Origin: Blasia pusilla
Lineage: Eukaryota
DNA: 64,000 nucleotides
Reading direction: 5' to 3'
NCBI GenBank assembly: GCA_050084515.1
Contig: CM114271.1
Coordinates: forward strand, 24,118,001-24,182,000
Below are positions 3,941 to 61,787 of this stretch, in pieces. The notes below the pieces were generated by a model that saw only the letters and a program-made list of their open reading frames with translations, searched no databases and was not told where the DNA came from. Numbering within the stretch: the stretch's first letter is position 1; every line of letters begins with the position of its first letter. Made by a program: the position numbers and the translations under genes.

Positions 3941-6900
3941 TGGGATGCACCACACAATCCGGGTGGTGTCCAAAGGGATCATAGTAGCACTCTTGCCTAC
4001 TTGGGGTTCCTTTGACCTGTCACACTGTGGTGCAAACGTCTCGCTCCACACGGTTTGCACCACGCAAACGTCTCGCTCCACACGGTTTGCACATGCTCAG
4101 TGGCTAAGCGTCCAAGCTCCTCAGTCGAGCCCTAAACCGGCACCTCTCCTCCACATACTGATATGGCTACCATGACACTCCTCTCCATAGAAATGTTAGG
4201 TCATACACGCGCTAGGTGTCAGAGGTATGGTCATACACGCGCTAGCATCAGCAATAGGAGTTGTCGCACTCGCTTCTTTCATCGCCCTCCATGCCTGCAC
4301 ACCAACAACATCACCAACTCTCCAGGAACTCTGATCAGGACCCATCGATGGGGTCCTCATCGCCTCAGACAACGTGAAAGACTCAGGAAGCCTAGTCTAT
4401 TTCTTGGCTTCCCCTCGCTGTGGATCCAATTCTGCGGCTGCTCCACATGTCACAGCTGCGGCGGCCTCCATCTGGGCAACCCCGCACATCCAACCAGGAT
4501 CCTCCATATCTCTCGATGCTCCATATGATGTCGATGCCATGGATCCGGCATCGGGTAATCTTAATGCCATAGCAACAATTTGCTCCTGCATCTGATGTAT
4601 GTGAGCAGCCATCCTAGCCTCACGCCCGATGTCTCCCTCGACGCCTCTAGGTGGTGGGACTCTATCTCCTCCACGGGCAGCTCCACCACCCTGTTGGGCA
4701 ACTCCAGCTCCTTGTCCCCAAACGGGACCACCTGGCGTACGACCTCTACGCCCACCCGGACCGGCTACTCGCTCTGGTGGCTTCTCTCGACCTCGGTCCG
4801 GATGTAACTGAGGATGTAAACTCAAACACCTAGCGTGTGTATGACCATACCTCTCTCAATAGTCACATTGATAACCTCCTGGTGCTGCACCATCTCCTCC
4901 TCCATGGTGAGGCACACGTCCATGATCCTGACAAGTGCAATCACGCTGATGATGGGCTCCATCACATGACCAACAAGTAATCGTAGGTGGATGTTGTTGA
5001 GCCGTATATGAAGGCGCAAGTCTTTGTGGCAGGGCCTCCCAATATCCTCCCTGGGCTTGTGGTGCCACAATCAACCTATCTCGGAGTCCACGTTGTTGCA
5101 CAGGTGGTGTAGACAATCGTGACTGCTCTCGCCCAAAACCCATGGTGGCTATGCTCTGCTCCACCATGTTGCGTTCAATGTTCTCGATGGTCCTAAAAAC
5201 ATCTCTCAACGCAGGGTAGGTGTTCATAAGAAGCATTCCCTCCCGCACCCGTGTGCGTAGGGTCCAGTGCAACATCGCGTACCATGACTGGATAGCGTGA
5301 ACTTCTGTCACCCCATGAGTGACGTTGATCAACCGGTGCAAGCGAGTGTAAGCCTCTCCCAAACTCTCACTCGAGCGCCTCTGAAAGTCGTGAATACTTC
5401 ACAACTTCTCCATCTGTACCCCCTGGTAGCTCGCCCTCAACTTAGCGAAGAACTCAACCACGAGGTTGAATCTAGGACGAACCTGACTAGATGGTGCAAC
5501 TGCTCCAATGCGAGTGACCCCTCCTAAAACATCACAAGTGGAAGAGGAAGTACCCTCTCTTGACTCCTCCTCCTCATCTGGGACATAATGTGGGTTGTAG
5601 TAGAGTCGTCATGCCTCAATCTCCTGGGCATATCTGTGGGAGAACTCATGGTAATCGTCCATGGGCGCCCCCTCTAATTGCATGGAACATACCGTTCCAT
5701 GCTGTAAACGGGTTGAACTCTTTAGAGTTCCTAGCCCGTTGTGAATCACACCAACTCCTTAACTCCGCAAAGAAGTCGTGTAGCTCTATAGTGCCTACTG
5801 CATCCAAAAACCTACGCGGTCCTCTACCCCGATTGTCCATCTCATATGCCCAACTAGTAGGACCACTCAATGTGTACGGTGGATGAATAACGCACTCCTC
5901 TATACGCTCCCTCGTCTGAAGATGACACATAAGGAGATCGAGGTGGTCTCTCACATGGAGACCCTCGAAACCTCGCATCACTCCGGGTAAACCCTCTAGA
6001 GCTACTCTCAGGTCCACTGCCTCGCCTTTCAAAATCTAAAAAAGACGCCGTAATGGCCCTCGTGCCCCTCTCACACGATCACTCTCAATCTTGTGAGTAA
6101 TCCCTCAATCACTCAAACTAAACATGCAGCACTCAATCTAATTTCTCTCATTGAGATGTGTGTTGTGCGGCAACAAGCAACGTGGTGCGGCAAATCAACC
6201 GATCTATCGTCTCATCGACAAACCATCCTCAACTCTGGACATCCCATACAGTTCTATGTCTCCTAAACCCATACATCATCGATGCTCCTAGCAACAGCAT
6301 GAAATCCAATATCCCAAATAACTTCCCAATATCCAAAAATCCCTCACACGTATAGGGTAAGTGACCAGAATGGGTAGCATGACAACAATGTTGATGTCAC
6401 TCCTCGGCAATTGCAAATCTTCATCCCAACTTGGTTGTGAAGACAACTCCTCCAATCAGCAAGTCGTACTCCTCTCATACTGACGCTACTCAAACCTCCT
6501 CGATGTGCGATGCAGGTTCAACGGTCCGGTGCAGATCTGGCGGCATGGAACGGCTACAAATGGCACGGCACTCGGCGGCATACCCTGCTCAATCATCAAT
6601 TCATATGCTCTGCACCTTAGCGAAGGAGCCACTCCGCGATCACGAGAGTGCGGTGCGGCCACAAGCGGCACAATGCTGAAATCGATGGCGCATTGCGGCT
6701 ATGGGCGTCACAGCACAATACTCGATCATCATCGAGCGGCTATCAATCCCAACATAGCAACATGAAATAAAAAATCAAATACCATAGCCTGAGGTCACCT
6801 GCCATCACTTGTTGATGACAAAATTGTGATGAAGATGGCTACAAAACCAAAGTACGTGGTGGCGCAAATCAAAGAATCAACGGTGGTTGTAACTCCACTC

Positions 6901-7637
6901 CGTAATGGCGGCAATGGCAACCAAAGGTTGGACAATGGTCGAACGCGACTCTAAGCACCGCTAAGCAACTACAGCGGTGGACCGTGGACCGTGGACCATT
7001 GATGGTGACAATTGACCATTGACCATCGATGGTGATGGTTGACCATTGACGATGGACCGTTGACGGTCACTATGACGGCGACGGCTGGTTTAGGGTTTGA
7101 ACAATTTAATCCTACCAATTGCCTAGAAATGGAAGTTTTGCAAGATTGACCATTACTTTTTGCTCGCAACTCCAAATTGCGCACCGTTTGTTGCGTAGCG
7201 TGCACAGCTTTGTGATCTACAATAAATCCAAAATATATTTGGGATCGAACATTCTAGTAACAATTGACAGGGACTTTTGTAAAACCCAATGTCTCTTTCT
7301 CCTACACAAAATTTGGCAGCACTTCCGTGCTGATTATTTCCAACGAAAATGTAATACATATGAGAACACAAATCAGAAGGCTAAATGGTGCTCTTGAGAG
7401 CCTCGGCATAGGGCAACCCACCCCCATACTCAATCCCTAACAAAAATTGGGCAGCGCTTGCGCGCGTCACTCTTCTACACAACAAATCGACAAAGGAAAC
7501 ATCACAAGTAAGCACCTCTTGCTCCGGTGAGCACTCCCATGAACCGCTGACAAGGAATACAATCCCCAACCTGAAAAACCAGTGAGTGATCAGCGAGCTC
7601 CCCCATGAATCTCTCTCACTCACTCATTCTCTCTTTG

Positions 7638-8155
7638 TAAAATTAGATCCAATTTCTCTCACAACATCGTAGTTCTCACATGTGTGCAATCTCACATGTC
7701 TTTCTCAATGTCAAACCAAACCCACTCTCCTAATGAGAGGCTTGGGTTACACACACAAGGCAAGCAAGACCATAGCCCCGCCGCCTCATGCTAAGAGGTT
7801 CAACAAAGACAAAATTAGCTATGAAGGTCTCTCTTCTTGAGGTATACCCCTCCCCTCTCCCAAGCTCTTTCCATGGTAACCTATGCCCCCAAGTCATCTC
7901 CTTGGATCTTGACCTGATGTAGGAGGTCAAGGTCCACTTACCAAAAATATAAAATCGATCAAACACTCGAACTGGTATTTACCTAAAATAGTAAGTTCCT
8001 CAATATGGCTCCTAATGAGCCGAAACGAAGGGGAAACGTGCTCTCTCAGGTTTCTTGAGGCCTCAGTAGGTTATCCTTCACCTATTGATTTTTTCCTTTA
8101 CTGCTCACAAAGGCGCTCTACTAGATCTCAATGATCTATCATAAAAGACGTGAAA
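7638..8155 (-). repeat. 5' terminal repeat X of copy 1
   Basis: Diverged homologue of 39927-40444 and 29252-29768 (taaaattagatccaat ... gatctatcataaaagacgtgaaa). Confidence 0.85.
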
Positions 8156-8159
8156 ATTT

Positions 8160-29124: not shown

Positions 29125-29880
29125 TGTTGTGCGCATACACATCGCTACACAACATATATCGCTGTCACCGAACACACACACAAACACGCACGATCCCATG
29201 CTAACTCATGGCATCCAAAAAACAAGACAAGAAGTACCAAATATCTCCAATTAAAGTAAGATCCAATCTCTATCTACACAATCTCACACCATAGCTCTCA
29301 AAGGTGTGCACTCTCTCTCATGTCAAACCAAACCCACTCTCCTAATGAGAGGCTTGGGTTACACTCACAAGGCAAGGGACCATAGCTCCGCCGCCTTATG
29401 CCAAGAGGTTCAACAAAGAGAGAATGAGCTCTCAAGCTCTCTCTCCTTGGGATATATACCCCTCCCCTCTCCCAAGCTCTCTCCATGGTAACCTATTCTC
29501 ACAAGTCACCTCCTTGGCTCTTGACCTGATGTAGGAGGTCAAGGGCCATATACTAAAAATTAGAAAGTCGATCATATACTCAAAATGGTACTTACCTAAA
29601 ATAGCAAGTTCCTCAATATGGCTCCAAATGAGCCAAAACGAAGGGGAAACCTACTCTCGCAGGTTTCTCGGGGCCTCAGCAGGTCATCCTCGACCTCCTA
29701 GGCATGTCGTACACTACTCTTGAAGACGCTCTACTACATCTCACCGATCTATCCTGAAGGACGTGACAATTATCGTGCGCATATACATCGCTGTCACCGA
29801 ACACACACACAAACACGCACGATCCCATGCTAACTCATGGCATCCAAACAACGAGACAAGAAGTACCAAATATCTTCAAT
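29125..29880 (-). repeat. 3' repeat block Y-X-Y of copy 2: Y 29125-29251, X 29252-29768, spacer AT, Y 29771-29880
   Basis: The two Y copies match apart from a 17-bp insertion and a few substitutions; X matches 39927-40444; purine tract AGGGGGGCG (sense) at 29881-29889. Confidence 0.93.
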
Positions 29881-30065
29881 CGCCCCCCTAGTTGGTGGTT
29901 AGGTCCCTCTAACTCCAGATAGCCATCTATCCCTACCTACCATGACATACATCTCTCGGACGCTAAGAGCAAGAAGGCCGGGTGCTCATGTGGCCCCATC
30001 GTTAGTCGCCTTCCTGTCATCCATGTCAGAGAAAAAGTCGGGATCGAACCTACCTAGTATCTCCT

Positions 30066-30809
30066 CTATGTACATCTGGGACACATCCATCGTCCCCGAG
30101 GAACCCTAGTGAGAGGTGGTGTCAGACATGCCATATGCCAACCTCTCGAACAACCATCACAGACTAGCATTGTGGCCGCACCACGGGCAAAACCACACAA
30201 CATACAACGCAAGCCTGCATGAACTACTGCTAAGCTCGGATCCAATGTACTATCAATGTTAGGAAGGTGACATGGTGCAAAATTACGCACATGGTCCTTC
30301 CATACCATACCATCGCGTCCCTCCAGCAAGAGAACACCGGATGGCAAAACGTCACGCACTCTCGGGATAGTGCGCCCTGCAGTCACATCCAACGTCGTCG
30401 GTGCCGTCTGCTGCAAGTAGACATTATCTCCCTGATGAAACCTCCCGATAGTTGGTCGATAACCACCACCCCGAATAGTCGCATACCTCAACGTATCTCG
30501 ATGCTGCGCAATCGCCAAGTTCTCGAACGCCATGGGCATCACTCTCCGAAACAACTCAGCCCTCTGAGAACATGCTTGCACCCATACATCTGGGTCATCA
30601 AGGTCCAGCACCTCACCAGCATCTCGACGAATGGCCGCAGGTAAATGTGGCTGTCGGCCATAAAGTAGAAAGTACGGTGAAAAAGACGCTAAGGATGCAT
30701 GCCTGCTGAATCTGTATCCCATCGCCAACCATGGCAAGTGGAGGTCCCAATCTCCTAGGTGCCCTCTCTGCAAGCCATACTTGCGTAAACCCCTCTTCAT
30801 TGTTTGCAC
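30066..30809 (-). pseudogene. Integrase C-terminal part ending in a PHD finger (copy 2)
   Basis: CMLC..MLVCDGCSRGWHMACLTPPL..VPRGRWMCPRC, a C4HC3 pattern, in frame with the integrase. Confidence 0.93.
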
Positions 30810-33439
30810 AACTCTCTCCGCTAATCCATCCGCCTCAGGATGATCTCACGAAGTCGTGCGGTGGTCGATCAACGCGTGATCACACAAGGCTTGAAACTCA
30901 CTGCGAAACTGGGTACCCTGGTCTGTCAACACCTCAGCCAGTGCGCCATAATGACTCATCACTCTGTCAAGGAAGACATAAGCTACTCCCTCACTCGCTT
31001 TGTCAGGCAATGCAACCAACTCGATCCACTTCGAGAAGTGCTCGACCATCACCAACACATAACGATTGTGACGCTTCGTCAAAGGCAAAGGTCCTGCAAA
31101 ATCCAAACTCCATCTATACCCTAAGCCCATGATCGGTAATGGATGCAACTGTGGAGTCAGAGCATTGAACGATGCTCAGACCCGATCACACACCATGCAC
31201 CTGGCAACAAACTGCTGAACGTCAGTCTGCATGCCTCGCCACCAATACTGAATCTGGAGCAAGCTGTACGTCCGCTTCACCCCAAAGTGACCCAACTCCT
31301 CGTGGGCATGCTGTGCTAGTGGTGCTCTCTGCGAAGGATGCGGCACTACGCGTACTCTGCCATCCTCCCAAACCCTCAAAACATGTGTCCCCTCCCAACG
31401 GAACCGTCCGGCCCACTGTAGGATCCGATCCCGCTCTCTAGCATCCACGGTGCTCGCAACGCTGCCAGTACGAGGTACTCCAAGACTACTCCATCATCAT
31501 GAATATCTCTACCACTTGTCGTCTCCTCACTGGCCTCGGGATCCAAGGACTCTCCACTAGACCTGGCCATCAAAGTCTCCACACTCTGGCTCTCCATAGC
31601 CAACATGCCTAAATAGGTTGACGCGTGCCATCTTGGCACGGACTCCTTATCACTCTCTCCATGCCATCGAGCTCCAGTCGCATCTCGCTGACTCAGGCAT
31701 GGGTTACGACTCAACTCATCTGCATCTTGGTTGAGCATCCCAGGTCTATGTACCACCTGAAAATCATACTCCTGCAACAACAAAGCCCATCTCGCAAGCT
31801 TCCCTGTAAGCTTGTCGGACTCTATCAACCACTTCAGAGGTTGATGATCAGTGATGATGGTAAAGGGGTTGCCGAATAAGTAACACTTGAAATGCAGCCA
31901 AGCACTCACCCTCATACAAGCTGTACTTCGCCTCTGTAGCATTTTTCGAGCGGCTAGCATAAGCCACCACAAACTCTCTACCCTCATCATCATGTTGGGT
32001 GAGCACCGCTCCAAGCCCCAACATGCTCCAATCTGTGTGCAACTGGAAAGGATGCCCCCTAATCGGTCTCCTCAAGATGGGCGCACACGTCAACCTGTCC
32101 TTGAGCAACTAAAATGCTTGCTCCTGCTCATCCCCCCAGTGCCACTCCTGATCCACCTTGGTCAGCAAGGTCAGTTGCTTCGCAATCAAACTAAATCCCT
32201 TGACGTATCGCCGATAGAAGTTCGCCAATCCCATGAATGCGCGAACACGGCTCACATCTGTAGGGCGTGAAATTCGTGAGATAGCCTCTACCTTCATTTG
32301 CTGAACACCAAGGCCCCTTGGGTATATCGTATGACCCAAGTACTCAATCTGGTCGTAGGAGAACTTGCACTTGCCTGGATGTAGCTTCAGCCCATGTAAT
32401 TGCAATCGTCCAAACACCTCCTCTAGATGTCGCTCATGCTCCTCAACGATGGTGCTAAAGACTACAATGTCATTTATATAACACCTAGCAAAATCCAGAC
32501 CAACCAAGATCCTATCCATGACCCTCTGAAACTCAGACGGGGCGTTCTTTAACCCAAATGGTAAGAACCGCCATTGGTACAAATAATCCTTCCCGTGAGA
32601 ATTGATGCCCAAAAATACCGTCTTCTACATGTCCTCCAATCTGATAGGCAATTGATGGTATCCGACTCGCAAATCCAATGAACTGAAGACCTTTGCGTGA
32701 CCAATCGCATCAAAGATCTCCTTAGGGGTGGGCATGGCATACCTATCGAACTTCGTCTGCCAATTGATAGGTCGGTAATCCCCACACATCCGCCTATCCG
32801 TCCAGTTGCCATGCACATCCTTCTTGGCGGGCATGACAGTGGTAGATGCATACTCCCCATGCGACATCTCCACTAGTCTTGCTCTGACCAAGTCTTGGCT
32901 CCTACTCTGAATCAGAGCCCTCTCCATATCATTGTACCTGTAGGATCTTCGGAAGATCGGCGTATCACTTGATAACTCAATGCGGATCCCCGGTCCCTTC
33001 AGCGTACCCAAATCCTCCATGCTAAATGCAAAGCAGCTCCTATAACTCCTCAGGAACTGATGTATTTGGCACCGCTCTCCTCCTATCAACTTAGGGCCCA
33101 TATCTGGCTCCCAAGTCTCCATCGTGACTACGGTAGGACTCTCCGGCATGGGTATCGGTGGTTGCTATGGTGCAACCCCGTCTCGAACAACAACACTCGG
33201 CCGCTCTCTTACAGCCAACTGCAAACTCTGATCTCCTCCACGTGCAGTGCCCGAAACCACGCTCGATGTTGTGGCTATCATCTCCTTGCGTACGAGCAAA
33301 ACATCCCAAGAATTCCAAGGGTGTCTCTCCCGATCTCCTCGGGTCTCGCCCCCAGCCACTGCCTCCACCGTCTCGGTAGGCATGGGGCTCACCAACGCAA
33401 CCGTTGTGATCTGTCGTGATCTCATACGACGCTGCTCAC

Positions 33440-34400
33440 CCCCTCCCAAGCTGAGGATCCATGTCAAGCACTTCAGGTCCATCGCCTGACCCAAGACATG
33501 GCGTCGTGATGCCTCTGACACTGACTGTACTGCCGTCACTCCTCTGGGAAATCCCATCGCTCGCTTTCTCTCGTCGGCGTTGGGCTCCACCAACCGCTAA
33601 ACCTGGTCATCCCAAACCAAGCCAGGAACGGCCTCCTTGTATGCATAGGAAGCGGGAAAACTCACAAACGTGGGCAAGGCTACCCTCGGCCTGCCTACCC
33701 TGTTGACCATAGTCAACAGTGGTCGATCATCGTGCCTCACTTCCTGTGATCGACGACCTGGATCCCGAATGGAATCCACTAACAAATGGGAGGGGCGCTC
33801 CACTCTCGCATACGCCCTCCATAACACCGCATGGGGCACCAAGTTGGTCCACCATAGACGCGGGCGATGGGCTCTAGAACCTACACTCGCCGCATCCAAG
33901 AACACTGCTGGGCCGATCCAGGCACGCACCTGCTGAGCACTCGTCACCACCCGTGACCTAGAGTATCCTAAGATCGGTGCATACTCCAAAATGTAGGCTG
34001 GAGAACGAGACTGGTGCTCCTGCAAGTGCCGTAAGACCCTCAACATCTCCCAAAACAACCTGGACTGAGTGTCAGCCAACCCGCTGCCTGGTCCACTTGA
34101 TTGGCCCTGACATGACCAACCGGCAATGACCAAATCAATGGTCCCTACCCGCTCTAAGTCCTGCGCCCCCAACAACGAAATATCCCTCGATAGGGAACTC
34201 TGGTACCCATGTACTGCGAACGCAGACAATAAGTCGGGAAAACGTAGGCGGAATTGTGCCACATGTGGTAGTGAGACGCGCCTTGCAACATCATCACTCT
34301 CCACATATAGGTACTGTTGTACTCACACTCTTGCCTGCAAAACAACAGCTAACCCGGTGCTAATCCCTCCAAAGAGATCTAACACTCGAATACCCTCCCC
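33440..34400 (-). pseudogene. DNMT3-like C5 methyltransferase domain of copy 2
   Basis: VLDLFGG, IAGWSCQGQS, RLFWEMLR, ILEYA, SRAHRPRLWWTNL, ERKRAMGFP, RRHVLGQAMD; PC and ENV motifs altered in this copy. Confidence 0.9.
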
Positions 34401-35298
34401 CTGGATACACCACACAATGGGTGTGGTATCCAAGGGTGTCATCGTAGCACTCCGTGCTACCTCGGGTTCCTCAGGCCCGTCATGCTCCGGTGCAAACGCT
34501 TTGCTTCACGCGGTCTGCACGTGTTCATCTGCCAATCGTCGAAGCTCCTCAGTCGAGCCCCACATCGGTACCTCTCCTCCACGGAATGATGCACCTACCA
34601 TAACACTCCTCTCCATAGAAATGTCAGGAACGGGAGTATCCTCTGCATTGACATGTCCCTCAATCAAATCACTAGGCCAAGTGATGGCACTGCTAAATGT
34701 TGCTAAGGTCGCCATCTCTCCTGGTCGTTGCTCGATCACTGCACCTGTGAATCGAAGGGGTAATGAGCTAAGACGCCCATCTCTTGACTGCCATCCTGGT
34801 TTGTAGGATGGTGACTCCTCCTAGTAATCCAGGGAAAACCCCATCGGGTATAACACTGCTCCACCAACCAAGACGTCGTAGGACTGTGCATTAGTCACTA
34901 TCGCCTTGGCGCGCACCACGGACTCATATGTAGGATGTCCCAGGAGAATCTTCACCAGGACCTCTTTTCAGATGATATACTGTGTGGTACTCGCTCCACC
35001 CAAGGATGTCTGTATCCGGAATGGACAACGCTCCACATCAGCTCTCGTCAAGCCCAATCCTCTGAATGACGCTTTCCCCAACATGAGGGGTTGCGCTCCT
35101 GAATCCAACAAGACGCGCTACGGACTAAAATCTCTACCTCCAGGACTCACCAACTGGAAGACCTCTCCTCGGTTATCCAGCAACACAACACCAGGAGAAG
35201 CCATGGCACGCTCTATCGCGGGTCTAGCGGGCATCTCCGCCATTCTAGCAGCCGCAGCCTGCCATGAATCTGACGTGGATGGTTCGAGCATTCGCTCC

Positions 35299-36279
35299 TG
35301 TCGCGCCCCTACTCTCCTTGAACATCAATCTTTAGTATTGCGGAAGCGTGCGTTCAGTAGGTCGCAAACTCATCGCCGATCTGCACCCAAACACGCACTC
35401 TCGTTAGTTGGGTCTGGCCAACCGGCGTTCCAACCCACCGAGTCCTCAACTCGGCGTCTCATCAAGCTCAACCTTCCTTAGTTCCTAGCTTCCAAAACAT
35501 GGCAAGTCCTTCAAGACTTGGAACAGACTTCCTGGTTAGTCCAGGGATCTGAAACAACACTTGCGCGCCTAGCAATCCCAACTGTTCAAGGGTCCTCGGG
35601 TGAGTTCCGAACCGAGACTCAAGTAATTGAGTCGCGGGGTGGAATCCAAAAGGGATGTCTAAAATCGCCTCACTGGACTTGGTGCAGGTTTTCCAACCCA
35701 ACCCCCAAACTCGCGTTCCGTTCCATGCCCTTGAGCCGCCCCGCGACGCCCAAAGTGGGGTTTGGGTTCCAAGCACTCTCGGAGACCTTCCCTCTTACTA
35801 GTACTTCTGGGGTTCTCCAATAACCCCTCCCCTTTGGGAAAAGAGGTTCGGGCCCTTCATTGTGGCCCTCAACCCGACTCCACTTACAGTCGTTTTCGGG
35901 TTGTATCTCGGCCACTGCTTATGCGTTTGCAGCGATATTTGGTGCGTTTGGACCGGCTTTCCATAAGCTTTCCAACGCATCCTTATTTGCTCCAAATGCA
36001 TCTTGGCGCTAAAAGTTATGGCCATAAATACAGTCGGAAACTCTCAAACGCTAGTGGCGTTCCAAATCCGGATCTTCCCTTTGGCAACCCACTTCCTAGA
36101 CTCGACTTCTTTCAAGTCTCATTCCGCGTTTGGTCCAGGTTTCTCAGTCGCAACCATAACACCTGAAACGCGACTCCTCGTTCGCGTCTCGTCTCTTGTC
36201 TCCACTTTGAGACAACTCCAACGCGCAAACCATGTTCCATGTTCCGCTTGGCACTTGTTTGGTCATGAGGGTCGCGACA
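35299..36279 (-). mobile_element. Chromovirus solo LTR nested between gag and protease of copy 2
   Basis: TGTCGCG...CGCGACA termini, 5-bp TSD GCTCC (35294-35298, 36280-36284). Confidence 0.95.
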
Positions 36280-39200
36280 GCTCCAAGGGGAGGTCCATCA
36301 CCTCCTCTGCAATCACCTCTGTACGTGATGCAGGAACTCCAACTCCACGCTCACATAGCGACGCGGCCAGCCGAGAAGCCTTGACGGGCGTACCCCCCGA
36401 CGTCATAACATCGGAAGCAGAAAATAAAGGAGTGCGGTACACAACGGTGGCCGCCCCCAACAATGTGCTCGACACATGCCCCTCCTGAGCATCAACAATA
36501 GGAGTCGTTGCACTTGCTTCTCCCATCGCCCTCCGTGCCTGCACACCAACAACATCACCAACTCTCAAGGAACTTTGATCAGGACCCATCCATGGGGTCC
36601 TCATCGCTTCGGACAACGTGAAAGGCTGAGGAAGCCTAGTCTGTTTTCTGGCTTCCCCTCGATGTGGATCCAACTCTGTGGCTGCTCCATGCGTCACAAC
36701 TACGGCGGCCTCCATCTGGGCAACCCTGCACATCCAACCAGGATCCTCCAGATCTCTAACTGCTCCATATGATGTCGATACCACGGATCCGGCATCGGGT
36801 AACCTCAATGCCATAGCGGCAATCTGGTCATGCAGCTGCTATATCTGAGCAGCCATCCTAGCCTCACGTCCGGCCTCTCCCTCGGCGCGTATAGGTGGTG
36901 GTACTCTACCTCCTCCACGGGCAGCTCCACCACCCTGTCGGGCAACTCCAGCTCCTCGTCCCCCAACGAGACCACCTGGTGCACGATCTCTAGGCCCACC
37001 TGGATCGGCTACTCGCTCTGGTGCCCTCTCTGGCCCTCGGTCCGAACGTAACTCAGGATGCAAACTGAAACACTTGGCGCGTGTATGACCATACCTCTGA
37101 CAATAGTCACACTGATAACCTCCGGGTGCAACACCATCTCCTCCTCCATGCTGAGGCATACATCCATGACCCTGACGAGTGCAATGGCGCTGATGATGGG
37201 CTCCACCACATGACCAACAAGTAATAGTAGGCGGTTGTTGTTGAGCCGCATATGAAGGCGCAGGTCTCTGTGCCACGGGCTCCTGGTATCTTCCCTGAGC
37301 TCGTGGTGCCATAGTTGACCTATCTCGGAGTCCACGTTGCTGCACAGGTGGTGCAGCCAATCGCGACTACTCTCGCCGAGAACCCATGATGGCTTACGCT
37401 CTCCTCTGCCATGTTGCGCTCAATGTTCTCAGCGGTCCTAAAAACATCTCTCAACGTAGGGGAGGTGTTCATAAGAAGCACCCTCTCCCGCACCCGTGGC
37501 CGTAGGGTCTGGTCCAGCATCGCGTACCATGACTGGATAGCCCGAGCCTTTGTCACCCCCTGAGTGACGTTGATCAACCGGCGCAAGCGAGTGTAAGCCT
37601 CATGTAAACTCTCACCCGGGTGCCTCCGGAAGTTGTGGATGCTCCGCAACTTTTCCGTCCGTACTCCTTGGTAGCTCGCCCTCAACTCAACAAAGAACTC
37701 AACCACGGGGTTGAACCTGGGACAAACCCGACTAGACGGTGCAACTGCTCCAGTGAGAGTGACCCCTCCTTAAACATCACTAGTGGAAGAGGAAGTAGCC
37801 TACCTTGACTCCTACTCATCTGGGAATGGCTCCCTCCATGACACATAGTGTGGGTCGTAGTAGAGTCGCCATGCCTCAATCTCCTGGGCATATCTGTGGG
37901 AAAACTCATGGTAATCGTCCATGGGTGCCCCCTCTAAATGCTGGAACATACCGTTCCATGATGTAAACGGGTTGAACTCTCTAGAGTTCCTGGCCCGCTG
38001 GGAGTCGCACCAACTCTTAAACTCTGCTATGAAATCGTGCAACTCAATCGTACCTACTGCACCTGAAAACCTACGCGGTCCTCTACCCCGGTCGTCCATC
38101 TCGTACGCCCAACTGGTAGGACCACTCACAATGTGTGGCGATGTTCTCACAAATTCCTCTACACCCTCCCCCTCGTCTGACGATGACACAAAAGGAGGTC
38201 GAGGTGGTCCCTGAAGTGAAGACCCCCGGAACCTAACGCCACTCCGCGTAAAACCTCTAGAGCTACTCTCGGGTTCACCACCTCGCCTCTCAAAGTCCCG
38301 AACGGACGCCGTGATGACCCTCGTGCTCTTCTCACCTGATCACTCTTGCCTCGCAAGTAATCCCTCAACCACTCATCCCAAACATGCGGCACTCGATCTA
38401 CACTCTCCCTCCCCGAGACATGTAACGTGCGGCAATAAGCGGCGTGGTGAGGCAAATCGATCAAGCTATCATCTCATTGACAACCTACCCTCAACTCCGG
38501 ACATCCCACACAGGTCCATGTCCCCTAAATCACATACATAAATAATGCTCTCAGCATCCACACACCCAATATCCCCAAATAAACTACCCAAATCCGAGAA
38601 TCCCTCACACGTGCAGGGTAAAGGGCCAGAATGGGTAACATGAACACATGTCGATGTCGCTCCTCAGCAGCTGCGAATCTCGACCCCAACTCGGTCGTGG
38701 AGACAAATCCTCCAATCAGCAAGTCATACTCCTCCCGTACTAATGTTGCTCAAAACTCCTCGATAGACGGTGCAGTTCCAGTGGAATGGTACGGCGTTGC
38801 AGGCGGCACGCAACGGCTACGAACGGCACGGCCCTCGATGATGGGATGTGGCACTCGGCGGCATACCCTCCTTATTCAACAATAAACCCACACTCTGCTT
38901 CACAATGCCAGAGCGGCTCCGCGATCAAGATGGTGCGGTGCCGCCACGAGTGGCACGGCGCGGCAACCGGCGGCGCGTTGCGGCTACGGGCGTCACGGCA
39001 CGGTACCCGATCGTCGTTGAGCGGCTACGAATCACAACATAGCAGCAGGAAATCAAAACTCAAACAAAATAACAGGAGGTCATAAGCCATCACAGGTTGA
39101 TGACGGTGGCGGCCAAAACAAAGTACGTGATGGCGACGCAAGTCCGAGAATCAATGAATGTTGTGGAAGACCCTCCACTCCGTAATGGCGGCAATGGCAA

Positions 39201-39926
39201 CCAAGGATGGACAACGGACGGTGACGGTTGGCGGTTGATGGTGACGAACGAATGGTGACGGTGACGGTTGACCGTTGGTGGTGATGGTTGACCATCGACG
39301 GTGATGCATGACCGTTGACGGTTGACGGTGACTATGACGGCGACGGCCGCCGCCGGTGTGGCGGCTGGTTTAGGGTTTGCACAATTTAACCCTAAAAATT
39401 GCCTAGCAATGGCATTTTTGCAAGATTGACCATAACTTTTTGCTCGCAACTCCAAATTGTGCATTCTTTGTTGCACAACTTGCACAGCTTCACAATCTAC
39501 GCCAACATTAAAAAATATTTGGAATCAGACATTTGAGTAAAAACTGACGGGGACTTTCATAAAGCCCAATGTCTCTTTCTTCTACCCAACATTCGGCAGC
39601 GCTTTCGCGCTGATTCCTCCCAAAAAAAATGTAAAACCTATAAAAATGCAAATCAAGAAGCGACATGGTGCTCCCAAAAGCACCGGCATGGGGCAACCCT
39701 CCCCCATACTCAATCCCTATCAGAAATTGGGCAGCGCTTCCACACGCCACTCTTCCACACGAAAAATCGGCAAATGCAAAGAACAATCCAAGCAACCCTT
39801 GCTCCGATGAGCACTCCCATGAGCCGTTGAACGGGGAACACGGTCCGCAACCTGCAAAAATAGCGAGTGACCAGCGAGCTCCCCCATGAAGCTCTCTCAC
39901 TCTCTCATTCTCTCATTCTCTCTTTG

Positions 39927-40444
39927 TAAAGTAAGATCCAATCTCTCTCAACACAATCTCACACCGTAGCTCTCAAAGGTGTGCACTCTCTCTCATGTCA
40001 AACGAAACCCACTCTCCTAATGAGAGGCTTGGGTTACACTCACAAGGCAAGGTACCATAGCTCTGCTGCCTCATGCCAGGAGGTTCAACAAAGAGAGAAT
40101 GAGCTCTCAAGCTCTCTCTCCTTGGGATATATACCCCTCCCCTCTCCCAAGCTCCCTCCATGGTAACCTATTCTCCCAAGTCACCTCCTTGGCTCTTGAC
40201 CTGATGTAGGAGGTCAAGGGCCACTTACTAAAAATTAGAAAGTCCATCATATACTCAAAATGGTACTTACCTTAAAATAGCAAGTTTCTCAATATGGCTC
40301 CAAATGAGCCAAAACGAAGGGGAAACCTACTCTCTCAGGTTTCCCGGGGCCTCAGCAGGTCATCCTTGACCTCATACGCTTGTCCTCCACTACTCTTGAA
40401 GACGCTCTACTAGATCTCACCGATCTATCCTAAAGGACATGACA
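39927..40444 (-). repeat. 5' terminal repeat X of copy 2, containing a TATA box
   Basis: 518 bp matching 29252-29768; sense TATATAT at 40133-40127; no Y sequence adjacent. Confidence 0.93.
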
Positions 40445-45155: not shown

Positions 45156-45357
45156 TGTTCCCGAAAATACCACCTCCTCGACAACGAAATTACTTTATGT
45201 GCATGATGAGTCACCTCGATGAGTCACCTTGATGAGTCGCTCGAATCGTCTCATGATGAGTCACTGTGTAAAGCGCCCCTTGGTATCTGGTCCGCTACTG
45301 CCCTAAAGAGCAATCGAGATCGCGAAACGAAAAACCTGAAATGAGCAAACTCTAGCC

Positions 45358-45365
45358 TATTTATA
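45358..45365 (-). promoter_or_regulatory. TATA box of the left-arm gene
   Basis: TATAAATA about 200 bp upstream of the ATG, conserved in the right arm. Confidence 0.6.
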
Positions 45366-51148: not shown

Positions 51149-51156
51149 TATAAATA
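51149..51156 (+). promoter_or_regulatory. TATA box of the right-arm gene
   Basis: TATAAATA mirrored at 45358-45365. Confidence 0.6.
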
Positions 51157-52775: not shown

Positions 52776-53359
52776 TGTCATGCGAATCCCCATCGTCATA
52801 CAACATACATCGCTGACATACCATACTCACATACATACATAACATAGACGAGAGTATCCACAAACGCAAGTGTACCACAACTAAAATCCGTGAAAGACCT
52901 ACTGTCATAAAACACGTTTACAATCACATACAATTGAGCCAAACCCACTCCACGATGGGAGAATCTAGGTCGAAGCTTGGAAACACCATAGCCAAGAGCT
53001 CTACTCACTACCAAGGCTAACTCCCCAAGCATAGCAGGCTCAACTCAAAGAACTGATGTTCTTTGAGGGCAAGCCACCTTATATCCTCCAACCTAAGAGC
53101 GGGCCCCTCTTTGGGAAAGTCACCCCCAAGTGAGTAACCCCAACCCTATGTATGGAACAAAGACATCTCTACCAAGCCACTACGGTCCTACATAAGGAAT
53201 GGCCTCTACCTGACACTATACTCTACGACATAATCCGTATGGTCATGGAATTTTTCGTGCGAATCCCCATCGTCATACAACATACATATTTGACATACCA
53301 TACTCACATACATACATAACATAGACGAGAGTATCCACAAACGCAAGTGTACCACAACT
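52776..53359 (-). repeat. 3' repeat block Y-X-Y of copy 3: Y 52776-52882, X about 52884-53250, Y 53253-53359
   Basis: Y copies near-identical; X matches 61423-61787; purine tract AGGGGGCG (sense) at 53360-53367. Confidence 0.93.
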
Positions 53360-56300
53360 CGCCCCCTAAGCGGCGGTTAGGTCCTCTAACTCCAGGTAGC
53401 CTATACATCTACTACATGCTATACACCTTCTTGGGTGCCCGAATCGAAGGCCGGGTGCTAGGTTGCCCCATCGTTAGTCGCACATCGTAATCCATATCAT
53501 GCAAAGATCAAGTCATCTACCTCTCCTAAGTACATCGAGGACAAACCCACCTTCCAGTAGGCACAACATCCAAACGTGGAGTCAAACACATCATGTGCCA
53601 ACCCCTAGAACACCGATCACACACCAACATACGGGTTGCGTTACGGTGAGACCCACACAACATGCACCTCAAGCTAGCACGTATCATGGCTAAGCTTGGG
53701 TCACAAGATACCATCCACATTTGGAAGATGACATGGCGCACAATTACGCACATGGTCCTTCCAAACAACTCCATCACGACCCTCCAACATGAGAACTCGA
53801 AGCCAACACCTCACGCACTCGTAAAATAGTGCGGCTGCCGTCACATCCAACGTTGTCGGGCAATCTGCTGCAAATAGACATAGTCCCCACATGGAACCTA
53901 CGAATCGATGGTCGATAACCTCCACCCGAATGGTTGCATACATAACGTATCCCTGTGTTGAGCAATGGCAAGATTCTCAAAGGCTGTTGGCATAACTCTC
54001 CGAAAGAGCTCCGCCCGGCCGAGAACACACCCTCATCTACATCTCGGGTCATCAAGGTCCACCACCTCACTAGACTCCCAACAATTCTTTGTTGGCAAGT
54101 CCGGATCTCGGCCGTATAATGAAAAATAAGGTGAGAAGGAAGCCAAGGATGCTTGGCGATCGAACCTATACTCCATGGCTAACCATGGCAACTGAATATC
54201 CCAGTCTCCAAGATGCCCCTTCTGTAGGCCATACTTGCGCAATGCCCTCTTTACCGTCTGAACCACACGCTCAGCCAAACCATCCGCCTCTGGATGATCT
54301 CGAGGCGTGGTCCGATGATCAATCAACGCCTTGTCACACAAGACCGAAACTCACCCTGAAACTCAGACTGGTGGTCAAGACTTCATTTGGTGCACCAAAA
54401 TGACTAAGCACTCTATCCGAAACGCATACGCCGTTCCCTCACTTGCCTTGTCCGTAATGCCACCAACTCAATCCACTTGGAGAAGTGCTCCACCATCACC
54501 AACACATATCGATGATGTCGATCAATGGTAACGGTCCCGCAAAGTCCACACTCCAACGGTAACCCAACCCCATAATAGGCAAGGGGTGTAATTGTGGTGT
54601 AGGGGCATTAAATGATGCCCTCACCCGGTCACAAACCATACAACGTGACACCAATCTGCTGCACTGAGTATGCATGCCACGCCACCAATATCGCCAAGCG
54701 CAAATAAGCTATACGTGACGCTTTACCCCAAAATGTCCCAACTCCTCATGGGCATGTCGCTGTGCGCTCTCTTTGAGCCAAATGTGGCACTACTCGTACT
54801 CTACCATCCTCCCACATGCGGAGAATATGTGTTCCCTCAATCGATACCTCTTAGCACGTTGAAGAACACGGTCTCGCTCCTTGGCACTCACTATGCCGGC
54901 ACCCTCTTGGTCCGTAGGAACTCCAACACCAACGCATCATCATGAATATCACGCTGATCGGTACCACCATCTCCAACCTTAGGATCGAAGGATGGCCATC
55001 TACCCCTCGACTAGAGTAAGATATCATGTGGTCCTCCATACTAGAGTCCACCCTAACCAACATAAAAGGCGGATGCATGCCAACTGGCACCATCTCCTCA
55101 TCAACCTCGCCATGCCATCTAGCCCCGATTGTATCCTCTTGGCTAGTACATGGGTTCCTACTCAACCCATCAAAGCATCAAGGTTGGCAACTCAGGTCTA
55201 TGTACCACCTGGAAGTCATACTCTGTAAGATAAGAGCCCACCGTGCAAGCTTCCTGTAAGCTTGTCCGACTCCATCAACCACTTGAGCGGCTGGTGATCA
55301 ATAACAAGGGTAAACGTGTGTGCCAAACAAGTAACACCTAAAGTGTGCCCACCCACACTCTTGCCAAGCACTCTCCCTCATATGAACTATAGCGCGACTC
55401 CATTTGCATTATTCGACCGACTTGCATAGGCCACCACAAACTCCATGTGCTCATCATCATGTTGTGTCAACACCGCTCCAAGTCCCAACCTACTCCAATT
55501 AGTGTGTATCTGAAATGGGCGCCCTCGATAGGTCTCCTCAAGATAGGCGCCGCCACCAACCAGGCCTTAAGCTCCCAAAAGCTCTCTCGATCATCTTCCC
55601 AAAGGTGCCACTCTTGATCTGATTTCAGCAATTGGTTCAAAGGCTTTGCCATAGCACTAAATCCCTTCACATACCTCCGATAGTAGTTCGCCAATCCCAT
55701 GAATGCTCGAACTCTACTCACATCTACCGGACGCGGAATAAGTGCAATAGCCTCCACCTTTGCTTGCTGAACTCCCAAACCACCTGGATAGATCACATGA
55801 CCCAAGTACTCAACATCCTCATGGAAGAACTTACACTTTCCTGGATGCAAACGTAGACCATGAGCTTTCAACCGCTCAAACCCTAAACCCTAAATGCTCC
55901 TCCACCGTGTTACTGAACACCAAGATATCATCAATATAACACTGAACAAAATCCAACCCTGCTAGGATCCTGTCCATCACTCTTTGAAACTCGGCAGGTG
56001 CATTCTTCAACCCAAAGGGTAAGAATTTCCACTAGTACAAACAATCCTTGCCATGAGAGTTGACACCCCAAAATGTTGTCTTGGCTTTGTCACTCTCCCG
56101 AATCGGCAATTGATGGTATCCTGCCCGAAGATCCAAATTACTGAAAATCTTTGCCTGTCCCACCACATCAAAGATCTCCTCAGGTGTAGGCATGGCATAC
56201 CTATCGGCCTTGGTTTGCCGATTGATAGGACGGTAATCTCCACACATCCGCCTATCCATGTAGTTGCCATGCATATCCTTTTAGCGAGCATGACAAGTGG

Positions 56301-56859
56301 GCGATGCATACTCTCCATGCGACAACTCCACTAATCCAGCCTCCAAAAGGTCCAACGTCCTACTCTGAATCAGGTCCCTCTCCATATCACTATATCGGTA
56401 GGGACGACGGAAGATTGGCGTATCACTAGCCAAATCAATCCGTATACCGGGTCCAACCAGAGAACCCAACTCCTTCATGCTAAAGGCAAAACAACTCTTA
56501 TAAGCACGTAGGAACTGTGTCAAGCGTTGTTTCTCACCTCCCGTAAGCTTGGGCCCAAGTAATGGCTCCCAAGTCTCCTCCATTGGCATACTAGAGGGAG
56601 AGGCGATGCCATTGGTGCTACATAACCCCTCACAAGATGATACACCCTTAGCTACACCATCATCTCGAGCAAATAACTCCTCCACCAAAGATGAGCAACC
56701 AACTCCACATGCCCAACCATTACATCCCATTTACTCCAAGGATGCAAAATACTACTCTCCTCGCCCACCGATGCCTCTACCGCCCGGTAGCCATCGAGCT
56801 CATTACAAGGGGTGGAAGACCCTGACATAGTCAAGTCGACGCTCGCCATACCAAGACTC

Positions 56860-57745
56860 AAAATCCAAGTCAAACAATTCAGGTCCATGGCTGACCCAAC
56901 ACATGACGTCGTGAAGCCTCGTAAATAGAAGCAACCATTTGCCACGCCATGAGAGTAAATCCCATCGCACGCTCTCTCTCATCAGCGTTAGGCTCCACCA
57001 ACTGCCCGCACATAAGAATCCCATACAAGCCCCGGACCACCTTCCTCGTAGGCATGTGAAGGGAAAACTCACAAATGTGGGTAGTGCCATCCTAGGTGGC
57101 CCACACGGTTCACCACCGCCATGGGTGACCGATCAATAACCCTCACCACTTGAGAAAGTCGCCCAAGATCAAGATACTATCCTTTGAAGGCGAGGATCAT
57201 TTGCCAGACCGCATCATATGCTCGACGTAGAACCTCCCTAGGCAACAAGTTTGTCCACCACAAGCGTGGGCGATGTGCACGCTGAGCCAACTTGTTGCAT
57301 CCAACAACACCGGTGGTCCAATCCAAGACCGCACCTCATGAACACTCGCCATCATCCGGGTCCAAGTGTCACCCAACAATGGAACATTCTCCAGAATGTA
57401 AGCTAGAGCACGTGCCTGATGAACATGAAGATGTCGTAACACCCGTAACATCTCCCAAAACAATCGAGACCTAGGGTCATGTAATCCCTCACCACGACCA
57501 GCACGTGTATGACCTTGACATGGCCATCCAGCAATCACCAAATCCACAGGACCAACCCTCTCAAGGTCCTGCGCCCCCAACAATGCAATGTGTGATGGTA
57601 AAGCACGTTGGTACCCACGAATAGCTGATGGCGGCAACAACTCAGGATATCTCCGCATCAACTGACCAATATGTCGGGATGAGACTCTCTGGGCCGTCTC
57701 ATCTCGCTCCACATACACGTATCTCCGCACAGGAATACCGGCCTG
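56860..57745 (-). pseudogene. DNMT3-like C5 methyltransferase domain of copy 3 (motif I lost by deletion)
   Basis: YVYVERD, IAGWPCQGHT, RLFWEMLR, ILENV intact; joined abruptly to post-protease sequence at about 57745. Confidence 0.88.
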
Positions 57746-60700
57746 AGAATCCATAGCAGAAACATTACCCTCCAAAAAGTCTCCTGGCCAAGTGACTACT
57801 CCACTAAAACCAGCCACAGATGTTAACACTGTTGGGGAAGACCCTCCTGGTCGAGCCCCAGAAATAAATCTCACAGGAACTTGGCTCATACGTCCATCCC
57901 GGATCGCCAACCTGGTCTATAAAGACGTCTCACCCAAATAATCCATCTGAAAACCCATCGGGTACAATACTGCTCCTCCAACTAGTACATCATACGACTC
58001 GATTGATGTGACTACCGCAGATACTCCCAACCGGGAGCTATCAGTCGCATGATCTGGTCTCAACTGTACAGAAAACTTATCCCGTGTCATGAATTGAGAC
58101 CTATCATTGGCTCCTCCAAGTGATGTTTGAATCTGGAATGGGCAAGGCTCAAGCTCTGACCTCCGAATACCCAAACCAATACATGCCGCCTTTCCCAACA
58201 TCAAAGGCTGGGCACCTGAGTCTAACAAGACTCTATCTGGTCTATACACCTGTCCTGTAGGACTCACCAATCGGAAGATCCCACTCCGGTTGTCCAACAT
58301 ACATACACCAGGTGTAAGCCTCTCACGATCAATGGCTGGCCGGGCTGGTAATGCATCCATCTTCGCCGTTGCTGCCTGCCAAGTAGCACTGGTACTCAAT
58401 GCTACTCCTGACATAGAGGGTCGCTCCACCGCAACATCCTCATCCACCTCAACACGTGTAGCAGTAACACCCCCACGTTCACACAATGTGGCTGCTAGCT
58501 GAAATACAGGAGCTAAGTCAACTCCTAAAGCCATCAGCTCCGTGGCCGAAAACAATGGGGATCCCAACACTGAAGTTGCCATCCGCAATACTGCACTGGA
58601 TGCTGCATCCGTGTCTACTACACGCGATGTAGATGCCTCAGTCCCCACTTTCGGCTCAATAGGCTGCGTAGGAACCATGGATGGAGTCCTAAGCACCTCA
58701 GACAACAAGAATGACTGGGGAAGCCTAGCCTGCCTCCCAGCCTCACCCCTCTGTGGGTCCAACTCCACAGTAGCACCACGTGGCTCTGACGCTCGAGTGG
58801 CTCCTCTCAGAATCGCTTGGTGATGCCTCAACCTTTGTCTTTGCACTCGCCATATAAGAGAGATCATCCCCTCCATAAGAGGTGGAAGCCCTCGCTCCCG
58901 ACCGATCTATCTTTGGATACCGACCATTGTAGCCAACTCTCGCTCCAATCTGCTCAATCTGGCGGCAGTGAGGCTGACTCTGTCGTAGTGGTAGGGGTAG
59001 CCACCGTAGGCTCTCCAACCACTGGTCCACCTCTACCACCCCTACCACCCCTACCACCTCTACCACCTCGGCCTCTTGGAGCTACTCCACCACGGCCACG
59101 GCCTGATCTCAACTCTGGATGAAGATCAAAGCAACGCTCTTGAGGATGACCTAGTCTCCCCAATGATCACACGAGTTGGGGCCGATTGAGGCCCATCCTC
59201 CAAAGTCCGTCTCCCATCCTCTTGGGGACAAAACTTCCTAACATGATCACCTCCACATGTCCAACATGACTGTCCTTGTTGCGGGGCAGCAAATGAAGGC
59301 AATGGTCTCTGCACAAATGTCCCTCTAGGACTTGACTGAGGTCGCGTGTACCCCCCACGACTCCCACTACTACTACCACCACCACTACTACAAGACTGTG
59401 AGGTGGGGCAACAACACGAAGCGTGATTTGTATCCCTGAATGAATGCGGATGTCACCACTCTCTCCTTCACGATGTTAAGCTCAATCTTCTTAGATAGAG
59501 CAAACACATGGGTCAATGTGGGTGAATCATCACTCATAAGAGTAGCATCACGCACGTACCCTACGGCGCAAATCTCTGTCCAAGATCCCATACCAAAATC
59601 GATCGCTGATCCTCAGTCACACCTTGGGTTACTGAAATCAAGCGCCGATACGCGTGTATGCCTCACGAAGACTCTCACCGAGTCTTTCGCTCAAAGTCCA
59701 AGATTCCTCAACTTCTCCGTCTTCACTCCTTGATAGTTCTTCTTCAACCTCTTGAAGAACTCTGCAATGGGCTAAACGATGGTGGGGCACTAGTACCTCC
59801 ACTAGTACCCCCACTAGTACCTCCACTTTGGTACCCCCACTCCGGCTCGTACTGCGTACCACTCGGGCCGGGCTAGGTGGCATAGTAGGAGCACTACTAC
59901 CAATACCACCATGGGTGATAGACACATAGCCTGGAGACCAATATTGTCTCCATGCCTCAATCTCAGCAACATGGTCCTTCCTAAACTCATGGTAATCATC
60001 CATGGGTGGTCCTTCCAAGTCTTTGAAACAACCCCTTCCAAGCCAAGAAGGGTGTAAACAACGTGGCGTTCCGCAACATCTGCATATCACACCACGTATC
60101 AAACTCCTGCATGAAGTCCTCCAACTCAATGGTACCCACTGCACCCGAGTATCGTCGTGGGCCCTTCATGGCCCCATATCCACCATCCATGTCCCAAATC
60201 AATGGAGCTGCAACACTCGATAACAACGTAGAAGACTCGGTGTTTGGAACACCCTTGTCCTCCTCTTCATCAATCGTCGGAAGTGGAAAAGGTAGCCGAT
60301 ACCTAAATCCACTCCATGTGAAACCACCACTGTCCGCACCACGGTTCCCAACCAGACCACCCGACAACTCCGTGATGACCAACGCCGATGCCGCACCACC
60401 ACCAAATTACCCAAGTGACGTCGATGTCGCTCTACTATTGTAGCTCTACTAGCTATGGGTGTAGGCAACCTAACCTCTCATCACCACAAGAAGACTCCCA
60501 CGGTCTACTGGTCATCACTCCAGCCTCACTATCAGTAGCACACAAGAGTAACACTACTATGGAAATCAGCGTCAACCCTAACAATGGGCGCGCAAGCAAG
60601 AAGCACAATGGAGGGGATCCAAACACAGGAAATCCAACGACAACCCTCCAATCGCAAATGGAAATCAAGGTAACAAAATCCACCAAACGTGGTGCCCTCT

Positions 60701-61422
60701 GAATCCACAAAACCCACCACACAATTCTAACGCAATAGCTACTCCGCCGCGGGTCGATGACGTGCTAGTCGAACTCGCAGCACCTGAAAATATCACCTGC
60801 ATGGAGAGGCTACACCGTACTATGCGCTAGAGGTACATCAACCAAAAACCTGAGATGCATAAAGTGCCTAACACCTCTCCGAACAGCACCAAATGAGCTA
60901 CAACAGTCTGTACACTGGCATAGTTAAGAACTCAGCAGTTAAGCGTCCTCCAGGCATAATAGCCCAAAGATGAGTGACCAGTTATGCAAAACTCAAATCC
61001 TAAATCCTGCAAAAATTGCCTCACGCCCAAGCAAGCAAGCTTGCTTGCTTGCTCCTTGCTCCTTGCTCCTTGCTCCTTACTCCGCCTCTCACGCCCACTC
61101 GCCCCGAGCTACCACGAGTTGCCTCGAAGCCTCGCCCCGAGCTTCCGCACTCCAAGCTCTCCACATCATAAAATTGTCGAACACGAGCCAGAATCTTCAA
61201 TGCTTGATAACTTCCAACTCCCTTGACGAAATCCGGCGATCTACAACGCGTTGGAAAGCTTTCAGCAAGGCGCTTCTTTCCCAACCAACCACGCACCTGA
61301 TTCACACCTCCAACATAGGCAACAAGCCGCGAACATCCACGGCTGAGTACAAAATCAGCCCTAACCAGATCCTACTGATCTACAATCGAAGCTACCATCG
61401 ATCTACTCCAGTTCTTTGAGTG

Positions 61423-61787
61423 AAATCCGTGAAAGACCTACTGTCATAAAACACGTTTACAATCACATACAATCGAGCCAAACCCACTCCACGATGGGAG
61501 AATCTAGGTCGAAAGCTTATGGAAACACCATAGCCAAGAGCTCTACTCACTACCAAGGCTAACTCCCAACGCATAAGGCTCAACTCAAAGAATCGATCGT
61601 TCTTTGAGGGCAAGCCACCTTATATCCTCCAACCTAAGAGCGGGCCCCTCTTTGGGAAAGTCACCCCAAGTGAGTAACCCCCAACCCTATGTATGGAACA
61701 GCATCTCTACCAAGCCACTACGGTCCTACATAAGGAATGGCCTCTACCAGCACTATACTCTACGACATAATCCGTATGGTCATGACA
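61423..61787 (-). repeat. 5' terminal repeat X of copy 3
   Basis: About 365 bp matching 52884-53250; no Y adjacent; sense TATAA near 61624. Confidence 0.93.

Follow-up and report, generated by a model that had tools for sequence, protein, structure and literature searches.

Cytosine methylation is the main weapon of a host against its transposons, so a transposon that carries a de novo methyltransferase of its own is a paradox. To our knowledge, transposon-borne enzymes of this type have been documented in two settings only, dinoflagellates and one charophyte alga. The 64,000-nucleotide stretch of contig CM114271.1 analysed here (hereafter the window) raises the question of whether a land-plant retrotransposon also encodes one. 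A preliminary description, made from the letters of the window, had placed a DNMT3-like cytosine methyltransferase (DNMT) between the protease and the reverse transcriptase (RT) of a Gypsy polyprotein. We find three degraded insertions in the window, all on the minus strand and all derived from one Ty3/Gypsy-type long terminal repeat (LTR) retrotransposon lineage. They belong to two diverged families, as had been stated, with copies 1 and 2 in one and copy 3 in the other. That these elements encode a DNMT3-type domain kept by selection is, in our view, close to certain.

The DNMT domain lies upstream of the RT in copies 1, 2 and 3, at 2976..3958, 33432..34397 and 56844..57826, respectively (minus strand), and its C5-methyltransferase motifs stand at one shared position, in agreement with the preliminary description. 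A protease stretch lies 5' of the DNMT in copies 2 and 3; the corresponding region has been deleted from copy 1. The expected match to PF00145 (Pfam gathering threshold 22 bits) was obtained for copy 1 (40.4 bits) and copy 3 (35.1 bits) but not for copy 2, which at 19.5 bits stays below the threshold. In copy 2, a single frame runs from the protease through a spacer into the DNMT; this domain is inactivated by two in-frame stops, by GWSCQ in motif IV (Pro to Ser; the family has GWPCQ) and by EYA in place of ENV in motif VI. The domain of copy 1 has FGG, PC(K) and ENV intact, together with one frameshift near 3170, several stops and a damaged motif VIII (AHCLDLWW). That of copy 3 retains PCQ and ENV, with motif I (FxGxG) deleted and frameshifts near 57293-57305. 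The catalytic motifs present are therefore I, IV and VI in copy 1, I only in copy 2, and IV and VI without I in copy 3. This agrees with the earlier reading that PC and ENV are intact in copies 1 and 3, both being lost in copy 2, where the strings AHRPRLWWTNL, ERAMGFP (ERKRAMGFP) and RRHVLGQAMD were all found.

Among solved structures, the best relative of the copy-1 open reading frame (ORF) is DNMT3A (E 3e-11), well ahead of DRM2 and bacterial enzymes. A family profile built from seven domains gave 77 bits against DNMT3A (E 9e-21), compared with 51 bits for tobacco DRM, 38 for M.HaeIII/HhaI, 28 for DNMT2 and 19 for DNMT1; a second collinear match aligned ERERAMGF...LGQAMD with ERVFGFP...LGRSW of DNMT3. 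PF00145 reaches 51.1 bits in the intact relative L033. As in the catalytic domain of mammalian DNMT3A/3B/3C, motifs I (FxGxG), IV (PC), VI (ENV), VIII and X are collinear in the family, and their order is not permuted. Among 43 aligned sequences, positions including the catalytic Cys and the Glu of ENV are invariant, and the motif VIII arginines are invariant or nearly so. The AlphaFold model derived from these 43 sequences has a predicted local distance difference test score (pLDDT) of 94.9 and supersedes an earlier model from seven sequences (pLDDT 57). Among the Foldseek matches listed for the predicted fold (ranks 1-47), all are DNMT3A/3B/3C (best E 2e-19), with TM-scores by target length of 0.79-0.84 for catalytic-domain chains. 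A look-up in the ESM Atlas returned generic PF00145 clusters only. By profile and by fold, the proposed DNMT3 type therefore holds. Motif X is likewise of the DNMT3 style, with LGQAMD in the elements and LGRSW in the mammalian enzymes. The element domain differs from the latter in that it is approximately 20% identical to them, contains a longer motif VIII-IX stretch (approx. 87 versus 62 residues in the profile alignment) and forms the tail of a Gag-protease precursor. It also comes without PWWP or ADD; Pfam found neither reader domain in ORF1 of L033, and a PHD finger is present on the integrase instead.

To gauge constraint, ratios of non-synonymous to synonymous substitution (dN/dS) were estimated by the Nei-Gojobori method on nucleotide alignments read in the frame of copy 2. 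For the DNMT domain, dN/dS is 0.21 between copies 2 and 1 and 0.17 between copies 2 and 3, the latter with a saturated dS of 1.76; the wrong frames gave 1.0-1.8. For the RT, the same pairs gave 0.35 and 0.17, with 0.7-1.5 in the wrong frames. The DNMT domain was thus as constrained as the RT while the families diverged. The values are far from the ratio near 1 that would have spoken against a selected domain, a claim of the preliminary description that stands.

Related domains are widespread. The copy-1 ORF retrieved 22 longer proteins, the best of them 55-56% identical, with Marchantia polymorpha (many 'hypothetical' models), Calypogeia fissa and Sphagnum fallax as named hosts; Closterium spp., Scenedesmus sp. 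and Haematococcus lacustris are further named hosts of the family. Three protein searches, with 22, 69 and 21 matches, gave element-borne copies only and no host enzymes, and none of these matches was labelled Klebsormidium. With a profile of the domain, we obtained 17,286 matching cluster representatives at E<=1e-3, of which 488 remain at E<=1e-30; each of the top 150 scores above 250 bits, and many of these lie within proteins of 1000-3456 amino acids. A scan of metagenome contigs added 71 related loci with the same DNMT position, many of them near-duplicates from related assemblies.

Two layouts could be distinguished among these proteins. Type I, to which the window elements belong, has the order gag-protease-DNMT-RT-RNase H-integrase, whereas type II has RT-RNase H-DNMT-integrase-PHD (Scenedesmus P0078, Haematococcus P0244, the proteins P0047 and P0025, and many others). 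The green-algal type II elements share with the window elements a related DNMT domain (>250 bits to the profile) and an integrase followed by a PHD finger, and differ in that the DNMT comes after RNase H rather than before the RT. Of 202 proteins with a near-complete domain, 37 are type I, 75 type II and 90 unclassed. A quick tree was calculated from 88 rows, namely 37 type I proteins, 45 sampled and one named type II protein, two named unclassed proteins and the three window pieces, the other 88 unclassed proteins being left out. All type II rows fall on one side of a branch with SH-aLRT support of 94, and the three window domains sit in a 13-row clade (SH-aLRT 99) with rows from Marchantia and Calypogeia, which makes the suggested land-plant host plausible. 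The PHD finger (PF00628), found in both layouts of the DNMT-bearing lineage, occupies the place of the chromovirus chromodomain; it was located at 30072..30215 in copy 2 (E 5e-11), at 53532..53675 in copy 3, 3' of the integrase (both minus strand), and at L033:8053-8187.

How the domain is made in relation to the rest of the polyprotein is best seen in L033, one of the metagenome loci. Here, an uninterrupted ORF of 1369 amino acids (976-5082) encodes a CCHC knuckle, the aspartic protease and the DNMT, and a second one of 1047 amino acids (5086-8226), also uninterrupted, encodes RT, RNase H, H2C2, rve and PHD. Both are in one frame and are divided by a single TAG; the same junction is present in L029, L015 and L003. 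Taking the conserved motif WEPxxGPK or FDDWP as the anchor, we scanned the region 5' of it in every locus, obtaining 40 rows that include many near-duplicates and represent fewer independent lineages, from at least four divergent groups. In 37 of the 40, there is an in-frame TAG (27) or TAA (10), always followed by CAA or CAG and exactly 17 or 21 codons ahead of the motif. Copy 2 has TAG CAA CCA at 33159..33167 (minus strand), between the DNMT linker and the RT, and copy 1 has the identical nine bases; in copy 3, a nearby TAG is out of phase. The Marchantia models P0004 and P0007 end approximately 77 amino acids past the DNMT domain. The preliminary view of a domain embedded in the polyprotein is therefore correct in that the DNMT is element-encoded between protease and RT, and DNMT and RT share a frame in intact relatives; it needs amending in that the DNMT lies upstream of a conserved in-frame stop that precedes the RT.

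Tobamoviruses use UAG_CAR_YYA as their type I read-through signal, which works with UAA as well (PMC3542737). The element stops resemble it in the stop itself, the CAA or CAG and the two pyrimidines that follow, as well as in their position between what would be a plentiful first product and a less frequent extension that bears the polymerase. The full UAG-CAR-YYA motif is found in six of the 37 loci with a stop and in window copies 1 and 2. As described in that source, the viral signal follows the replicase core, whereas the stop of the retrotransposon follows protease and DNMT, and the second codon is CCC in most element relatives rather than YYA. From its position and context we infer that the conserved stop is probably a programmed read-through site. 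Since it separates DNMT from RT, the DNMT would be the C-terminus of the main translation product.

Assignment to Ty3/Gypsy rests on the order protease-RT-RNase H-integrase (DDE), on direct terminal repeats and on a short target duplication. There was no match to PF00589, the tyrosine recombinase that marks DIRS elements, and the integrase is of the H2C2 and rve type. Copy 2 is a complete element of 11.3 kb (29125..40444), including a nested insertion. Its gag occupies 36299..38102, with CCHC knuckles at approximately 37016-37288, followed by the aspartic protease (LLDSGAQ; 34848..35195), the DNMT and conserved stop, RT and RNase H (31760..32882) and the integrase with H2C2 zinc domain, rve core and C-terminal part (30222..31361), all on the minus strand, the PHD finger forming the integrase C-terminus. 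The nested insertion of approximately 1 kb (35280..36280, strand not assigned) is present in copy 2 only; it separates gag from protease and has kin repeats at 21660-22512 and 25276-26136 of the window. Copy 1 (1..8158, minus strand) is truncated by the window start within the integrase and has its first terminal repeat at 7638-8158. Copy 3 (52777..61792, minus strand) is complete. Over all three copies, the GC skew is strongly negative (approximately -0.2) on the plus strand, which means more G than C on the coding strand of the elements.

The terminal repeats follow an unusual plan. In element orientation, copy 2 consists of the LTR-like repeat A1 (39927..40444), the coding region, a polypurine-like tract (AGGGGGGCGA, 29880..29890) immediately 5' of repeat B1 (29783..29880), then A2 (29252..29768, 94.8% identical to A1) and finally B2 (29125..29251, 96% identical to B1 over 98 nt plus an indel), which bears the 3' terminus of the element; all lie on the minus strand. 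The same A-coding-B-A-B arrangement is found in copy 3 (A1 61423-61792, B1 53251-53359, A2 52884-53255 and B2 52777-52882, minus strand), L039 and L051, and L024 has B-A-B, so that all five elements with a 3' end share the B-A-B region (window 29125-29880 and 52777-53359; L039:10238-10805; L051:14507-15075; L024:6513-7080). Terminal repeats were not found in the contigs L033, L029 and L015, which probably lack one or both ends and are therefore uninformative on this point. The internal B1|A2 junction consists of the 3' terminus, 2 nt and the 5' terminus, and at the A2|B2 junction the end of A is followed by the sequence that lies 3' of the polypurine tract.

The termini of copy 2 read 5'-TGTCATG...CGCACAACA-3' and those of the elements overall 5'-TGTCATG...CGCAYGACA-3'. 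Copy 2 is flanked by GCCA and TCCA, which match in three of four bases, and target duplications are AACA (or AAACA) in copy 3, AAGG in L039 and CATA (or ACATA) in L051. Comparison with a paralogous empty site near 43611-43824 identifies copy 3 as an insertion that includes B2. This site is available because copy 3 lies in only one arm of an inverted segmental duplication (41106-45476 versus 51026-52754 and 61787-64000, 80-91% identity), which includes a tandem array of approximately 65-nt repeats (43505-43858). Insertions of copies 2 and 3 are old, given that A1 and A2 differ by 5.0% and 6.3%, respectively. Mismatches in these LTR pairs are without transition bias (12/26 and 12/23 transitions), and CpG observed/expected ratios of the elements (0.28-0.76) are not distinct from those of neighbouring DNA (0.55-0.83); no statement on methylation follows from either.

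Directly 3' of A1, where a primer would bind, 11-16 nt can pair without mismatch with a mid-A site in four of four elements (39912..39926, minus strand, in copy 2; 61409-61422 in copy 3; L039:2018-2033). Such complementarity is the signature of Tf1-type self-priming. The pattern suggests that reverse transcription of these elements may be self-primed rather than started from a tRNA.

Three raw RNA-seq runs were searched for reads at least 90% like the copy 2 element. Each run yielded 3922-4149 such reads over the whole element including the DNMT, with a depth of approximately 20-50 over the DNMT and approximately 100 at the 3' end. The first mate fell on the plus strand approximately 10 to more than 100 times more often than on the minus strand, depending on bin and run; provided that the libraries follow the usual stranded design, these are sense-strand transcripts. 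Joints in the reads skip the insertion specific to copy 2. In each run, 22-25 reads link the end of B to the start of A with 2 nt between, and the joint 40444->29125 sets the end of B2 at 29125, with the proviso that related copies would give identical reads from their internal B1|A2 junction. Most reads are 90-95% like copy 2, and the runs share their species label with the best DNA match, which itself has only 41% of the sampled words; what is observed is therefore transcription of related copies and not of the dead copies in the window.

What would an element gain from such an enzyme? We propose that translation yields mainly ORF1, Gag (CCHC)-protease-spacer-DNMT, and that read-through of the same-frame stop would add RT-RNase H-integrase-PHD. 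Every translation product would then carry the DNMT, with RT and integrase present in a minority only. The particle would form with Gag-protease-DNMT as a co-assembling component, and its protease may free the DNMT. The enzyme might then methylate new double-stranded cDNA before or during integration, a new copy thus arriving already methylated, and the PHD finger of the integrase could select the chromatin that is entered. Taken as a whole, a Gypsy lineage with a DNMT3-type enzyme, a leaky stop and cDNA methylation is the best explanation that we can offer, and we would put its probability at roughly 0.6. Within it, the choice of the element's own cDNA as the substrate, which derives from the layout, is tentative and in our view somewhat less likely than not. 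A more elaborate version is in our judgement rather unlikely. It envisages an old lineage, extending from green algae to land plants, that makes DNMT3 with Gag before the leaky stop, primes in the Tf1 manner and integrates from joined-ends, circle-like DNA, opened by the DDE integrase at the palindromic B|A junction, in place of the usual linear LTR-to-LTR DNA. Entry of this type would explain how a DIRS-like A-coding-B-A-B structure can coexist with a 4-bp target duplication.

Several points weigh against our explanation. None of the three window copies is intact; all are pseudogenes, so the window gives no sign of present activity, and the transcripts come from other copies, in runs that have their species label in common with the best DNA match. 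Among the 37 stops, 31 are followed by CAA CCC, one base off the CAR-YYA consensus. The metagenome loci, many being near-duplicates, are not independent witnesses. Placement with DNMT3 is by profile score and fold rather than by a tree with host DNMT3, DRM, CMT and MET1. In one relative, Closterium sp. NIES-53 P0220, whose polyprotein model is long and open, GWECQ replaces GWPCQ at residues approximately 710-716, so catalysis may not be kept everywhere. Finally, the DNMT3 domain of the Klebsormidium Gypsy element gave no methylation when expressed in yeast, a result that its authors call inconclusive (PMC5890265).

The last two observations would fit a domain retained for something other than cDNA methylation, such as modification of RNA, be it genomic or a primer, or a non-catalytic, nucleic-acid-binding function of a Gag-protease module. 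Its location within the Gag ORF, the usual home of nucleic-acid chaperone functions, points the same way. We nevertheless think this unlikely: the catalytic Cys, ENV Glu and motif VIII arginines vary little or not at all among the 43 aligned sequences, the solved structures closest in fold are DNMT3 enzymes bound to DNA rather than DNMT2, and the DNMT3 domains of the Symbiodinium elements do methylate CG in yeast (PMC5890265). Alternatively, the enzyme could act on host chromatin, at the integration site or on resident copies, guided by the PHD finger and setting the silencing or copy number of its own element. Host-directed effects were raised as a possibility in 2018 (PMC5890265), the PHD finger is always beside the integrase in this lineage, and a leaky stop would supply DNMT in excess over RT and integrase. 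We regard this as improbable, since PHD finger and DNMT reside in different parts of the read-through protein and would presumably be separated by protease cleavage, and since the CpG depletion of the elements does not set them apart from their neighbours.

At the other extreme, there might be no element-borne enzyme at all, the adjacency being accidental and due either to insertions into a host DNMT3 gene or to an assembly chimera. This is refuted by identical junctions in three copies from two families, by continuous ORFs in independent loci, by the spread over 71 related loci and the 488 cluster representatives at the stricter cut-off, and by selection on the DNMT as strong as that on the RT; we give it next to no weight.

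The type of element is not new, as the preliminary description had recognized: de Mendoza et al. described retrotransposons with a DNMT in Symbiodinium and Klebsormidium in 2018 (PMC5890265), and later texts refer to 'streptophytes (Gypsy-DNMT3)' (bioRxiv 10.64898/2026.05.21.726589; PMC12344493). The window element belongs with KnitGypsy-Dnmt3 of Klebsormidium nitens and extends this kind of element to a land plant. Like the window elements, KnitGypsy-Dnmt3 as published has the Gypsy domain set plus a DNMT3-type domain that is not rearranged, is intronless and under purifying selection (Ka/Ks <0.2, in line with 0.17-0.21 here), and is given the repeat structure 'A-coding region-B-A-B', the DIRS arrangement, that we see in the window elements (PMC5890265, legends to figures 1e and 4c). 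The difference lies in the host, an alga there and a land plant (probably a liverwort) here. This comparison covers the domain set, selection and repeat plan as published, a further reason for caution. SymbioDIRS-Dnmt3 of Symbiodinium shares the DNMT3-type domain in a retroelement, the A-coding-B-A-B repeats and the existence of two alternative domain orders within the group (PMC5890265); there, the recombinase is of the tyrosine type, whereas the window-type elements encode a DDE integrase (H2C2/rve) and duplicate 4 bp of the target.

In the accessible texts, we found no liverwort or moss credited with a DNMT-bearing Gypsy element and no mention of the stop codon, while supplements may list copies. 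The Marchantia methylome paper names, in the part available, five host DNA methyltransferases, none of them element-borne (PMC5784723), and the words Marchantia, methyltransferase and PHD were not found in the accessible text of PMC6317226. The kind of element has thus been known since 2018; new here are its presence in another group of hosts, the structure of its ORFs, the PHD finger, the signature of self-priming and the extent of the family.

Acquisition of the DNMT3 domain by KnitGypsy-Dnmt3 was placed 'in the K. nitens lineage' (PMC5890265). The 488 cluster representatives at E<=1e-30 suggest that the acquisition is much older, or the domain more mobile, than that. The same kind of element is present in liverworts and Sphagnum, with transcribed relatives, and the question of why a transposon should bring its own methyltransferase is now within reach in Marchantia, a land-plant model for which genetics and methylome tools exist. 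From the conserved stop that follows the DNMT comes a concrete and testable statement about dosage: the enzyme would be made in step with Gag and not with the RT.

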